From: Parachlamydiales bacterium
GTDB taxonomy: Bacteria; Chlamydiota; Chlamydiia; Chlamydiales; JAJFMK01
NCBI GenBank assembly: GCA_020050175.1
Contig: JAGVKY010000150.1
Span: 1 to 32,156, forward strand
Length of the DNA stretch: 32,156 nucleotides
Direction of reading: 5' to 3'
Below, piece after piece: positions 2,657 through 17,666 of the stretch. A program made the translations under genes and the position numbers. Positions within the stretch are counted from its first letter, which is position 1. Every line of letters starts with the position of its first letter. The notes under the pieces were generated by a model. It was not told the origin of the DNA. It ran no database searches and saw only the letters and a list, made by a program, of their open reading frames with translations.

Positions 2657-5065
2657 CTAATAGGGCCATTTCCAGTCACGAATTTCTGGTAAATCATCGC
2701 CAAACTGTTGAATGTATTTTTTGTGTTCCAGTAATTTGCTTTCAGCCAATTCTCTTATATAAGCAGTCATCTTGGAAAAACGCGGCACTCTTTCCACTGT
2801 ATCAACAAACAAATGGAAGCGATCTAGATCATTAAGAACAACCATGTCAAAGGGCGTAGTCGTTGTCCCTTCCTCTTTGTATCCCCGAACATGGAGATTT
2901 TTGTGGTTTGTTCTCCTATAGGTCAGACGATGGATTAGCCAAGGATAGCCGTGGAAAGCAAAAACAATCGGTTTATCGATTGTAAATAGTTCGTCAAATT
3001 CTTGATCTGAAAGACCATGGGGATGTTCGCTTTTTGGTTGAAGGACCATTAAATCGATGACATTGATAAAACGGATTTTTAAATCAGGAACATGACACCG
3101 AAGCAAGTCTATAGCCGCTAAGGTTTCCATTGTAGGAACATCTCCAGCACAAGCCATGACGACATCAGGTTCACTATTAAAATCATTGCTGGCCCATTTC
3201 CATATTCCAATACCCTTAGCACAATGCTGAACCGCTTCATCCATAGCGAGATATTGTAGAGCTGGCTGTTTTCCAGCGACAATCACATTGACATAGTTGC
3301 GGCTTCTAAGGCAGTGATCAGCGACGGAGAGTAGGGTGTTTGCGTCTGGTGGCAAATAAACTCGAATGACTTCAGCCTTTTTGTTCACGACATGGTCGAT
3401 AAAGCCGGGGTCTTGATGAGAAAATCCATTATGATCTTGACGCCATACATGCGAAGTTAAAAGGTAGTTTAACGAAGCAACCGGATGGCGCCAAGGGATG
3501 TGTCGCGTTGTTTTGAGCCATTTTGCATGTTGATTAAACATCGAATCGATAATGTGAATAAATGCCTCGTAGCAGGAAAACAAGCCGTGTCTCCCCGTCA
3601 GAAGATAACCTTCAAGCCATCCTTGACACATATGTTCGCTTAATATTTCCATGACTCTCCCGTTGGGAGAAAGATAATCATCATCACTTGAATAGATCTT
3701 TCCATCAAATGCACGTCCCGTGACTTCAAACAAGGCATCTAGTCGATTTGAAGCGGTCTCATCAGGCCCCATCACACGGAAATTTCGACTTTCCATATTC
3801 AATTTCATGATATCGCGTAAAAAGCATCCCAAGATACGCGTAGCTTCACCCTCAACGATCCCAGGCTTGGTCACTGATACAGCATAATCGCGGAAATCAG
3901 GCATGCGCAGATCTCTTAGTAAAACTCCTCCATTGGCATGAGGATTTGCTCCCATTCTACGATTCCCATGGGGAGCCAAGTCTGCAAATTCCTGTTTAAA
4001 TTTACCCTGTTCATCAAAGAGTTCCTCTGGTCGATAGCTTTTCATCCAGTCTTCTAGAAGTTTTAGTCGACTTGGATTAGTGGCAAAGTCTGTAAAAGGG
4101 ACTTGATGTGAGCGCCAGGAGCCTTCAACTTGCTTCCCATCAATTTGTTTAAGACCTGTCCACCCTTTCGGCGTCTGCAAAATAATCATTGGCCAGCGAG
4201 GTCGTTTGCTGATATTTTGGACGCGTGCACGCTGTTGAATATCTTTAATTTTAGCAACGACAACATCTAATGTTGCCGCCATCAATCGATGCATTGTTTC
4301 GGGATCTGATCCAGCAACAAAATAGGGCTGGTAACCATAGCCCCGAAAGAGATCTTCCAATTCGTCTTGATCAATACGAGCAAGCACTGTGGGATTGGCA
4401 ATTTTAAAGCCATTTAGATGGAGGATAGGTAGTACCGCACCGTCATGAATGGGATTGAGAAATTTATTCGAGTGCCAGCTAGCTGCTAATGGACCAGTTT
4501 CAGCTTCTCCATCTCCAACTACACAACAAGCAATGAGGTCAGGATTATCGAATACTGCACCATAAGCATGCGACATGACATACCCAAGCTCACCTCCCTC
4601 GTTGATTGACCCAGGAGTTTCAGGCGCCACGTGGCTAGGAATTCCCCCAGGAAAAGAAAATTGTTTGAAGAGCTTCTTCATTCCTTCTTCATTTTGAGAG
4701 ATATTGGGATAGAATTCTGAATACGTGCCTTCAAGATAAACATTAGCGACAACTCCTGGGCCACCATGTCCCGGACCAGCCAAAAAGAGCATGTCTAGAT
4801 TATGTGCTTTGATCAGACGGTTGAGATGAGCATAAATAAAATTCAACCCAGGTGTTGTTCCCCAATGCCCTAAAAGCCTACTCTTAATATGTTGTAGTGT
4901 GAGCGGCTTTTTAAGAAGCGGATTATCTAGCAGATAGATTTGCCCTACAGAAAGATAGTTTGCAGCTCTCCAATAGGCATCGATCCTCCCTACCTCTTCT
5001 GGGCTAATGGGTCTTTTAAGTTCTTCCTGATGCAAGGTAGATTTTAAGGTTGCACACTGTTCCAT
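2657..5065 (-). CDS. xfp: Xylulose-5-phosphate/fructose-6-phosphate phosphoketolase
   Basis: 802 aa. Family hallmarks are [42 protein letters not shown] and [13 protein letters not shown] (ThDP-binding region). The length is typical. Confidence 0.92.
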
Positions 5066-5071
5066 AATACC

Positions 5072-15875: not shown

Positions 15876-16260
15876 GGCGACTGAGCTCCATTAAATTTCT
15901 TATAAAATCGCTTTCCAGTTTTGCCAACATCGAGTAGATTTTTTTTTCTTCTTCGGTTCGTACTAAAAATTGCTCCTTGACTATCTGCTCAATAGTGCCG
16001 AGTTCATTGGCTATCACAGCATTTCGTACAGAGACATGCACGTCAGACCCTGTTTTGGCTAATATGCCTTCATCTACCGCGATGAAACGTTCCCCTTCTT
16101 CTTTAGTTTCAAAGAGTAAAACTCCAGGAACGAGGCAGGCAATACAGTCAAGACGTAGTGGCAATATGCCAAAGGAACCACTTATGGTTTCGACTACCAT
16201 GCGCACTACGCCGGTTCTTTCAAGGATCACTTTGGTTGGGATGGAGATTTTGAGATTCAT
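15868..16260 (-). CDS. atpC: N-ATPase epsilon subunit
   Basis: 130 aa with a beta-sandwich N-terminus ([22 protein letters not shown]) and a helical C-terminus. It has an ATGA overlap with atpD. Confidence 0.85.
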
Positions 16261-17666
16261 TTCCTACCCTCTCCATAAGTTTGCTTCTGAGCTATTTCGT
16301 CGATGGAGCCGATCATATAGAGGGTTTTTTCCTCAACATCCTTGAATTCATCCTGCAAAATCCTTTCACATCCATCCAAGGCTTCGTTAAGAGTTACTGA
16401 TTTACCTGGTATACCTGTTGAGGACTCAGTGGTAAAGAAGGGTTGGGTCAGAAATTTTTCCAATCTTCTAGCACGCAGGACAAGGTTTTTATCACTTTGA
16501 GAGAGCTGTTCAAAACCAAGCATTGCGATGATATCTTTGATATCCTCGTACTGAGAAAACGTTCTCTTGATTTCTTGGGCAAGACGATAATGTCTTTCCC
16601 CCACAATGCTTGGTGTTAACATCTTCGAATTGGATTTCAAAGGATTGATTGCTGGGTAAAGGCCTTCACTAGCACGCTTGCGCGACAACACAATCGTTGC
16701 AGAAAGATGAGAAAAGGTATGCACTGCAGCAGGGTCGGTGAAGTCATCGGCGGGCACATAAACAGCTTGAATAGAGGTAATTGCGCCATTTTCAGTATTG
16801 GAGATGCGCTCTTCAAGAGCTGCCAATTCAGTACTCAGGGTTGGCTGGTAGCCCAATCTTGAGGGGAGGTTGCCCATTAGCCCAGAAACTTCAGAACCGG
16901 CTTGGATAAACCGAAAGATATTATCTATGAGAAGTAACACATCCTTGTGCTGTTCATCACGAAAATACTCAGCCATTGTCAAAGCAGCATGTCCAACCCT
17001 AAAACGGCAACCAGGCATTTCATTCATTTGCCCAAAAACCATGAGCATATGTGGCAGCACACCGTTTTCTGTCATTTCACGATAAAGTTCTTCCCCCTCT
17101 CGACACCTCTCACCTATCCCACAGAAGATACTTACCCCTTGATAAGTCTTAACTGTATTATGGATCATCTCTGCAAGCAAAACAGTCTTTCCTACACCAG
17201 CACCACCAAAAAGTCCCGCTTTACCACCTCTTTCCAAGGGGATGAGAACATCGATTATTTTTATTCCCGTCTCGAAAATTTCAGATTCTATAGATCGTCT
17301 GGAAATAGCAGGAGGTTGACGATGTATAGATCGCCATTCCACGTCTTTGAGAGGAGCCTTATTATCGATAGTTTGCCCAAAAACATTGAACATACGGGAA
17401 AGAATATTTGGCCCAACAGGTGCTTGTAGTTGCTTTTGTGCATCTACTATAGGGTCTCCTCTAGCTATTCCTTGGGTAGGGGTGAGAGCTATTCCACGCA
17501 CCTTATTAGCAGCGAGGTGTACTTGAACCTCAATGACAATATTCCGAGTGGTTCCAGCATAGAGTAATGAATTAATCGCTGGCAGCTTATGCTCAAATTT
17601 GGCATCGATGACGCTCCCCCTAACAGCGATAATTTCTCCCAAATTTTCTTGATTTTGACCGTTCAT
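16257..17666 (-). CDS. atpD: N-ATPase beta subunit
   Basis: It has the Walker A motif [35 protein letters not shown] and [11 protein letters not shown]. It is the first gene of the operon, which is itself a hallmark of N-ATPase operons. Confidence 0.93.

Follow-up and report, generated by a model that had tools for sequence, protein, structure and literature searches.

An N-ATPase operon continuing into a Cu(I)/Ag(I)-type RND pump and a phosphoketolase on a putative chlamydial conjugative element

Introduction

Why would a membrane ATPase, a copper efflux pump and a phosphoketolase be encoded in one uninterrupted run of genes? The question is raised by a contig of a Parachlamydiales bacterium (GenBank JAGVKY010000150.1, found in both NCBI and IMG), which was analyzed over its whole length of 32,156 bp and is here called the window. 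On its minus strand, from position 17666 to 2657, we found thirteen intact co-directional genes in the order atpDCQRBEFAG-cusC-cusB-cusA-xfp, i.e. an N-ATPase block continuing into a CusCBA-type RND pump and a phosphoketolase. An earlier note on this DNA had proposed that these genes form one transcription unit and a self-powered efflux module. With slightly more confidence than doubt, we read the string as a composite operon on a chlamydial conjugative element, in which the N-ATPase would sustain a bulk proton-motive force that is partly spent by the co-expressed CusCBA.

All of the component families are already known. The N-ATPase operon atpDCQRBEFAG was described by Dibrova, Galperin and Mulkidjanian in 2010 (PMC2881411), and the Burkholderia pseudomallei enzyme is treated in a study according to which the function of N-type ATPases in the cell still has, for the most part, to be explored (PMC5376962). 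The presence of N-ATPases in Chlamydiota, beside A-type ATPases, has also been recorded, in ProAD (PMC11738941). Papers on chlamydial plasmids report efflux systems and a plasmid-borne glgP2, with no ATPase or phosphoketolase (PMC7846284, PMC4208316, PMC7935935). No mention of an RND or efflux pump beside an N-ATPase was found in the open-access papers on N-ATPases and chlamydial plasmids that were consulted, and no open-access full text was found that contains both phosphoketolase and N-ATPase terms.

Layout of the gene string

With the most plausible start codon chosen for each gene, the junctions from atpD to xfp are -4, -8, +1, +4, +5, +3, -8, -8, +2, -8, -14 and +6 nt, the atpB/atpE value becoming -4 nt with an alternative TTG start. 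The open reading frame listing and the start-codon analysis thus agree with the earlier count of thirteen minus-strand genes joined at -14 to +6 nt, and the last four values (atpG/cusC, cusC/cusB, cusB/cusA and cusA/xfp) are exactly those which the earlier note had quoted. The identities of the genes were settled by Pfam and NCBIfam profile matches (Table 1).

A consensus scan returned 39 promoter-like sites against 38.5 expected and 19 terminator-like sites against 17.5 expected, i.e. chance level in both cases, and placed neither kind of site at any junction of the thirteen genes. Upstream of atpD, a 34-nt TTGACG-17 nt-TGATAA pattern occurs once in the window, and the same pattern precedes atpD in one pump-linked relative (locus L174 in our numbering of compared loci) and in two chromosomal relatives that lack the pump (L086 and L087). 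This element is a candidate promoter for the entire string, and since it is common to loci with and without the pump, the string is probably driven by the ATPase operon's own promoter. The claim of a single transcription unit is thereby strengthened, with no internal signal above chance and a promoter-like element that is kept in relatives, and we infer that the string is co-transcribed as one operon. An FNR operator was considered at the same place and rejected, as the TTGA-N7-TCAA stretch that overlaps the -35 element is not spaced like an FNR site; nor did a CsoR-like box appear upstream of atpD.

The contig is chlamydial and Parachlamydiales-like. The nearest genome-level relatives of its AtpG are found in an uncultured Chlamydiales metagenome-assembled genome (MAG, 68% identity) and a Rhabdochlamydiaceae MAG (52%), and its CusA is 83% identical to one in a MAG labelled Parachlamydiaceae. 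One close relative is labelled Bacteriovoracaceae, which we take to be a binning label in conflict with the remaining evidence. On the plus strand, between 18630 and 32083, lies a complete-looking F-type conjugation cluster (TraL, E, K, B, a DsbC-like protein, TraC, TraU, TraN and TraF), transcribed divergently from the ATPase string, which therefore appears to reside on a conjugative plasmid or integrative element (ICE) of an environmental chlamydia. An assembly chimera was ruled out by the same gene order in independent assemblies, which stem from different samples and sources (JGI 3300042890 and 3300048599, several SRA runs, ENA and an NCBI MAG).

Conservation among chlamydial relatives

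Close relatives were recovered by exact-protein look-ups. In at least nine further contigs (L001, L002, L003, L088, L174, L175, L176, L178 and L179), atpG is directly followed by OEP-CusB-CusA, with atpG/OEP junctions of -11, -1, -4, -1, +7, +59, +21 and -1 nt. Across these relatives, identity to the window goes down to 69% for AtpG and ranges over 75-91% for CusA and 78-92% for AtpA, and the divergence of CusA tracks that of AtpA. In a tree of concatenated AtpD, AtpA, AtpG and AtpB, the chlamydial N-ATPases, including that of the window, form one clade among N-ATPases with 100% bootstrap. The pump-linked loci split into two subclades, each with 100% support, and three chromosomal loci without a pump (L086, L006 and L090) are nested beside one of them. 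Since CusA tracks AtpA, the simplest history would be that of an early fusion which mobile elements passed on as one piece, with a secondary separation in the chromosomal copies. The adjacency described by the earlier note is accordingly not a peculiarity of one rearranged island, being found in both subclades and, in another form, on a Legionella anisa plasmid (see below).

No adjacency in the clade persists as well as that between atpG and OEP, whereas xfp and glgP change position or are lost. In the fullest relatives (L003, L178 and L179), the order is N-ATPase, OEP-CusB-CusA, Xfp, a second outer-membrane factor with a multicopper oxidase and a DUF2231 protein (OEP2-MCO-DUF2231), GlgP and sometimes CopA. 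A sister RND lineage (L177) has OEP-CusB(YtkA)-CusA, two P-type ATPases and OEP2-MCO-DUF2231. Seen together with the Criblamydia plasmid described below, these layouts suggest that the string is a copper island merged with an energy-metabolism module.

Other genes are closely joined to chlamydial N-ATPase operons. In L086, a 3.3-Mb chlamydial contig, hypF/C/D/E lie upstream of the operon (1-3185), a PEP synthase/PPDK-like gene follows atpG with a 4-nt overlap in L006 (10882-13308), and a GH130 phosphorylase gene precedes atpD with a 4-nt overlap in L007 (3327-4403); in these two chromosomal loci the joined genes thus encode further enzymes that handle phosphate compounds.

Identity and ion specificity of the N-ATPase

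The nine atp genes resemble the described N-ATPase operon in their order (atpD-C-Q-R-B-E-F-A-G), in the presence of both AtpR and AtpQ, in an elongated b subunit combined with the lack of a separate delta-subunit gene (atpH) within the string, and in a two-carboxylate c subunit. Lateral mobility, carriage on plasmids and presumed ATP-driven ion pumping are further shared traits. Among the "alternate F1F0" profile models, those of the beta and c subunits are passed at their cut-offs, while the a subunit (TIGR03306) scores just under. Unlike the described operon, that of the window belongs to a chlamydia, adds three RND-pump genes and a phosphoketolase at junctions of +2 to -14 nt, and has the c-site E/ESM..Y in place of the common E/EST..Y.

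AtpE has a Glu in helix 1 and E-S-M-x-x-Y in helix 2, with Met replacing the Thr of Na+-type rings, and so lacks the full Na+-ligand set (E, E, S, T, Y), which is present as E-S-T-x-x-Y in most of the surveyed N-ATPases. Met, Ile or Leu occupies the Thr position in all chlamydial N-ATPases and in that of L. anisa, and thus in all of those linked to an RND pump; the ES[MIL] motif also occurs in chlamydial N-ATPases without a pump. The N-type c-ring of B. pseudomallei, with E30/E61-T62-M63-Y66, is biochemically H+-selective (PMC5376962). Because the c-site of the window lacks Thr like this H+-specific ring, proton coupling is likely by analogy, and because the Burkholderia ring lacks Thr too, the full Na+ set does not define the family. 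A Na+-type c subunit was rejected on the motif, i.e. the replacement of the Thr ligand by Met.

The putative copper efflux pump

The best PDB match of the RND permease is E. coli CusA (3k07, E=0), aligned across residues 19-1044. In transmembrane helix 4 (TM4), the motif AIGSMVDASIIIIEN is conserved, the helix reading GGIALAIGSMVDASIIIIEN against ...AVGAMVDAAIVMIEN in E. coli, which is a monovalent-type motif. The segments LLYMP, APISMVET and RTEMLATG align with the methionine-triad positions of E. coli CusA, whose three-methionine Cu(I)/Ag(I) site consists of M573, M623 and M672. Of the proton relay, Asp and Glu are conserved in the alignment, and the Lys was read from the query only. The pump is predicted to export Cu/Ag. 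Its outer-membrane factor and adaptor do not reach the cut-offs of the equivalog or subfamily models of E. coli CusB, NodT and TolC and are therefore family-level members only.

Compared with E. coli CusCFBA (PDB 3k07 and 3ne5), the window shares a methionine-triad permease with TM4 A-x-G...D-A-[AS]...EN, a CusB-type adaptor, an OEP-family factor and overlapping cusB and cusA. It differs by having no cusF between cusC and cusB, whose 8-nt overlap leaves no room for it, by the lack of a nearby cusRS, and by an extra N-terminal YtkA-like domain in the adaptor (PF13115, residues 60-142; cf. L177 8608-10020), which may replace a periplasmic copper chaperone. Moreover, the pump stands behind an ATPase operon and not behind a copper-responsive promoter of its own, and no CusRS, CueR or CsoR gene was identified within the window. 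In one Parachlamydiaceae MAG (L178), DUF2231 and glgP are separated by an insertion with a metal-sensing repressor gene of the CsoR/RcnR family (21214-21513) and a CDF transporter.

The phosphoketolase and the genes behind it

The translated xfp has the GDGE...N stretch for binding of thiamine pyrophosphate, and the gene is 88% identical at the nucleotide level to xfp of the Criblamydia sequanensis megaplasmid. Past xfp the string runs on more loosely, with +112 nt to the DUF2231 gene and then +14 nt to the phosphorylase gene. The 112-nt spacer is a deletion scar, where ~31 nt from the start of an OEP2 gene run directly into the final ~75 nt of a gene for multicopper oxidase. In L003 the two genes (~3 kb) are intact between xfp and DUF2231, and they are intact also in L178 and L179. 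The reading frame of the phosphorylase gene is interrupted by a TAG at 1685-1687, at a codon that specifies Glu (GAA/GAG) in four relatives, and the gene may thus be a pseudogene, contain a sequencing error or be re-initiated at an adjacent GTG. Of the ATP-cone gene that comes next (98-250, minus strand), only the first 51 codons are recognizable, the last ~97 nt of the contig diverging from the gene of the relatives and containing a stop. Judging by the scar, the nonsense codon and the truncated ATP-cone gene, the window is a decayed derivative. No acetate kinase gene was found in the window.

Genomic neighbors of N-ATPases in other lineages

The wider survey covered 160 N-ATPase loci with at most 10 kb of flanking DNA, taken from GTDB representative genomes and JGI metagenomes and annotated by tblastn with the proteins of the window, the Criblamydia plasmid and the Legionella plasmid. 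The metagenome matches listed were distant N-ATPases, with no chlamydial ones among them. Counts were made over the non-chlamydial loci (L008-L085 and L092-L171) with at least 5 kb downstream of atpG (n=82) or at least 3 kb upstream of atpD (n=59).

In 21 out of 59 loci (36%) from many phyla, a phosphoketolase gene with the same orientation as atpD lies just upstream of it, and nine of these genes end 53-122 nt from atpD. Acetate kinase genes were found upstream in seven out of the 59, and glycogen phosphorylase genes, too, recur less often than those for phosphoketolase. On Hymenobacter plasmids, N-ATPases are flanked by genes for TPI, phosphoglucomutase and alpha-glucan phosphorylase and by hyp genes, and on Polymorphobacter plasmids by ackA, rpe, zwf and tkt. 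A regulator mutant of B. pseudomallei shows joint upregulation of the N-ATPase genes and of their neighbors pta, ackA and pfk (PMC5964159). This locus (BPSS1944-1957) is flanked by, and co-regulated with, pta, ackA, phosphofructokinase and alcohol dehydrogenase genes, with no RND pump or phosphoketolase reported there (PMC5964159). It is a better comparison than the low-oxygen lxa locus of B. cenocepacia, which was rejected as the same system and is a loose analogy only: its description lists ackA, pta and polyhydroxyalkanoate (PHA) genes and no N-ATPase, the only ATP synthase named being the housekeeping one (PMC3721108).

This broad association with phosphoketolase is the most useful by-product of the analysis. 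About a third of the surveyed N-ATPase operons stand directly behind a phosphoketolase gene, and others beside genes for acetate kinase, glycogen phosphorylase or hydrogenase maturation, neighbors which point to ATP-driven membrane energization in fermentative or anoxic survival and give a testable handle on the role of N-ATPases. Glucoamylase-family and P-type ATPase genes also recur near non-chlamydial N-ATPases, and hypC/D/E adjoin the N-ATPase on one Hymenobacter plasmid (L172, 19420-22052). The hyp genes next to the N-ATPases of L086 and L172 hint at an anaerobic context.

Two plasmids of other amoeba-associated or chlamydial bacteria share larger parts of the string. On the L. anisa plasmid NZ_CP082853 (L005), genes for a thymidine-phosphorylase-family protein and PRPP synthetase, atpDCQRBEFAG, a cytochrome c, TolC, an adaptor, CusA/CzcA, a hydrolase, pta and ackA are found on one strand. 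In contrast to the window, atpG and the pump genes are not adjoining here but have a cytochrome c gene and gaps of 63-178 nt between them, and Pta-AckA stand in place of phosphoketolase. Its N-ATPase falls outside the chlamydial clade in the concatenated tree, and its RND permease is 47-49% identical to both chlamydial RND lineages, so the cluster looks like a separate assembly of the same set of families in another amoeba-resident bacterium.

The megaplasmid NZ_LK031773 of Criblamydia sequanensis (L004; PMC4208316), on the other hand, shares the order xfp-glgP-ATP-cone-MBL-TP-family-PRPP synthetase with the chlamydial loci. There, a TolC-adaptor-CusA/CzcA pump of a different RND lineage (50% identity) precedes xfp, with a P-type ATPase in between and ackA nearby, and the plasmid has no N-ATPase. 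The ATP-cone/Mrr-like, MBL beta-CASP hydrolase, thymidine-phosphorylase-family and PRPP-synthetase-like proteins are recurrent chlamydial co-travelers of the module (L001 14126-18733, L004 8660-13267, L005 78-2497 and L174 18627-20912), and the genes for the last two lie directly upstream of the L. anisa N-ATPase.

Possible function and alternative explanations

In the reading that we favor, an N-ATPase operon with its own promoter would have been extended at its 3' end by OEP-CusB-CusA and then by phosphoketolase and glycogen phosphorylase. One source of this merger would be a chlamydial copper-resistance island (CusCBA ... OEP2-multicopper oxidase-DUF2231 ... CopA), and the other the module of N-ATPase with phosphoketolase, glycogen phosphorylase and acetate kinase that accompanies N-ATPases in many phyla. 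Phosphoketolase would split glycogen-derived sugar phosphates to acetyl-phosphate, from which ATP could be made by an acetate kinase encoded elsewhere; alternatively, ATP would be imported from the host, as chlamydiae are able to do. By hydrolyzing this ATP, the N-ATPase, predicted to be proton-coupled, would maintain the proton-motive force and a stable pH in cells whose respiration is weak or has been poisoned, and the co-transcribed CusCBA would be one consumer of the bulk force while expelling Cu(I). Generator and consumer would in this way be co-expressed under a shared stress, such as an acidic, copper-loaded and oxygen-poor amoebal vacuole or the extracellular stage, with neither a private gradient nor a physical complex between them.

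Two proposals of the earlier note are thereby kept in part. That phosphoketolase and glycogen phosphorylase could supply the ATP has real comparative backing in the phosphoketolase genes found upstream in the survey, but fits less well with the nonsense codon in glgP and the lack of ackA in the window. That the ATPase could energize CusA is compatible with an H+-type c motif and a proton-driven RND pump, whereas nothing suggests a local or private gradient. Energization by the bulk force, a weakened form of the original logic, is hence supported, and the strong form is unsupported.

A number of observations weigh against the favored reading. Downstream of atpG, tblastn identified an RND component in none of the 82 non-chlamydial loci, and upstream of atpD in one out of 59, the other 58 being without. 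This one (L048, an Acidobacteriota MAG) has a partial CusA-like 3' end (4-978, 52% identity) together with a P-type ATPase, ~3 kb upstream of the N-ATPase, and is the only other RND pump near an N-ATPase among the 160 surveyed loci. A general linkage of N-ATPases and RND genes, for which the earlier note had suggested looking, was ruled out by this survey. Taken together with the plasmid and Burkholderia contexts, the survey counts therefore mark the link between N-ATPases and acetyl-phosphate or glycogen metabolism as widespread, and that with RND pumps as lineage-specific. Even among chlamydiae, the chromosomal N-ATPases of L006, L007, L086 and L090 lack the pump, and the sister RND lineage of L177 (67% CusA identity) sits in a pure copper island that adjoins an integrase and a primase and has neither ATPase nor Xfp. 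Downstream of the pump the gene content is fluid, xfp being absent in L174, glgP located upstream in L088 and L176, and OEP2-MCO deleted in the window. The tra operon on the opposite strand is just as compact (junctions of -4, -4, -4, -8 nt etc.), and tight packing is therefore a trait of the whole element and not of the thirteen genes. With a stop in glgP and no ackA, this contig does not encode the whole of the proposed route of ATP supply. Finally, the direction in which the ATPase works, its ion specificity and co-transcription are all inferred.

Much of this is what pure island mosaicism would look like, i.e. cassettes piled onto one mobile element where compaction removed the spacers and co-transcription became incidental, with no energetic or regulatory tie. 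This is a substantial rival, although we hold it to be doubtful. In its favor are the fluid content behind the pump, the lack of RND pumps beside N-ATPases in other phyla, a tra operon packed as tightly as the string, an RND sister lineage without an ATPase, and the decay seen in the window as a scar, a nonsense codon and a truncated gene. The interleaving of copper genes among metabolic ones agrees with it as well, with OEP2-MCO-DUF2231 between xfp and glgP, CopA after glgP, and a P-type ATPase before the Criblamydia xfp. Mosaicism fits poorly, on the other hand, with an atpG-OEP adjacency that has held across two deep subclades while xfp and glgP shifted, and with the L. anisa plasmid, where an unrelated N-ATPase and a different RND lineage have become adjacent, again in the company of pta-ackA. 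Although a single case, this parallel is the best argument for an association that was selected and not accidental. We consider it unlikely, however, that it can be carried as far as a proton-coupled N-ATPase recruited convergently, in chlamydiae and on the Legionella plasmid, as the energy source for a Cu/Ag RND pump, with N-ATPases broadly being the membrane-energizing arm of a survival module of phosphoketolase and acetate kinase.

Far less probable is a dedicated self-powered efflux machine, in which a local H+ (or Na+) gradient would be used preferentially by CusA, possibly by way of the proximity of co-translated complexes. The tight junctions and overlaps would permit translational coupling, the adjacency persists in the lineage, and the H+-type motif is found in all pump-linked N-ATPases including that of L. 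anisa. Yet this same motif is shared by the chlamydial N-ATPases that lack a pump, no interaction feature was seen, AtpQ, AtpR, AtpF and CusA having no extra domains relative to their homologs, and the association is absent in other phyla. The pump's own sister lineage also does without an ATPase. Chemiosmotic force is, moreover, generally delocalized. We give marginally less credence still to an N-ATPase whose role is unrelated to the neighboring genes, being either to export Na+ and so give salt tolerance, as in Aphanothece, or to synthesize ATP when the driving force is low. N-ATPases were originally proposed to be Na+ pumps (PMC2881411), most of those surveyed have the full E/ESTxxY motif, and a large c-ring, extrapolating from PMC5376962, would favor synthesis at low force. 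The c subunit of the window, however, is without the Thr ligand and agrees with the site of the H+-specific Burkholderia ring, and genes for phosphoketolase, acetate kinase and glycogen phosphorylase as recurrent neighbors fit consumption of ATP rather than its synthesis.

The composite operon favored here would be the chlamydial variant of a widespread arrangement, with an ATPase operon that reads into a Cu(I) RND pump in bacteria of copper-loaded, acidic amoebal vacuoles. If the ATPase does sustain the force of the pump, the string would be a compact and transferable package of resistance plus power among amoeba-resident bacteria; if not, it would be a clear example of mobile-element mosaicism welding unrelated systems into one transcription unit. 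Were the broader recruitment true, an energy-parasitic bacterium with little respiratory proton pumping would drive metal efflux by glycogen fermentation or host ATP, giving an operon-level "ATP-powered RND" system and an explanation for the purpose of second ATPases.

Coordinates of the features

Table 1. Features of the gene string and of the DNA on either side of it in the window, listed in the direction of transcription
Feature	Position	Strand	Evidence or remark
Promoter-like element	17753..17786	minus	TTGACG-17 nt-TGATAA, then GGCAT; ~90-120 nt upstream of atpD
atpD, beta subunit	16257..17666	minus	TIGR03305 alternate F1F0 beta, 823 bits vs cut-off 752; Pfam ATP-synt_ab
atpC, epsilon subunit	15868..16260	minus	PF02823; 4-nt overlap with atpD
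atpQ (gene 1 protein)	15567..15875	minus	PF09527 ATPase_gene1, 29.3 bits vs cut-off 26.6
atpR, N-ATPase-specific membrane subunit	15290..15565	minus	PF12966 AtpR, E=2.9e-18; ATG at 15565, 1 nt past atpQ stop
atpB, a subunit	14596..15285	minus	PF00119; TIGR03306 alternate a subunit, 297.8 bits, marginally under cut-off 302.1
atpE, c subunit, two-carboxylate site	14312..14590	minus	TIGR03322 alternate c subunit, 150.5 bits vs cut-off 130.85
atpF, long b subunit (b-delta fusion type)	13535..14308	minus	PF00430 on residues 7-136 of 257 aa
atpA, alpha subunit	12001..13542	minus	Pfam ATP-synt_ab and ATP-synt_ab_C; 513 aa, same as relatives
atpG, gamma subunit, final gene of N-ATPase block	11100..12008	minus	PF00231, E=9e-53
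Outer-membrane factor, cusC-like	9733..11097	minus	PF02321 OEP, two stretches, E=4.8e-40, 138 bits; ATG 2 nt past atpG stop
CusB-type periplasmic adaptor	8232..9740	minus	PF16576, 226 bits; TIGR01730, 120 bits vs cut-off 94.9
cusA, Cu(I)/Ag(I)-type RND permease	5072..8245	minus	TIGR00914 (CusA/CzcA), 1101 bits vs cut-off 701
xfp, phosphoketolase	2657..5065	minus	XFP_N, XFP and XFP_C full length (613, 298 and 321 bits); NF003619, 1480 bits vs cut-off 962
Deletion scar, 112-nt spacer xfp/DUF2231	2545..2656	minus	By-eye alignment to L003
DUF2231 membrane protein	1960..2544	minus	PF09990; last gene of the OEP2-MCO-DUF2231 copper module in L003, L177, L178 and L179
Alpha-glucan (glycogen) phosphorylase, GlgP2 type	263..1945	minus	TIGR02094, 479.5 bits

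Between the tra and atp promoters, the minus strand has, at 18040-18420, a 53-aa open reading frame (...RIKNHVQKI...) followed by a similar frame without a start codon (...RLKNHLEIIK...), which may be the remains of a small regulator or partition gene.

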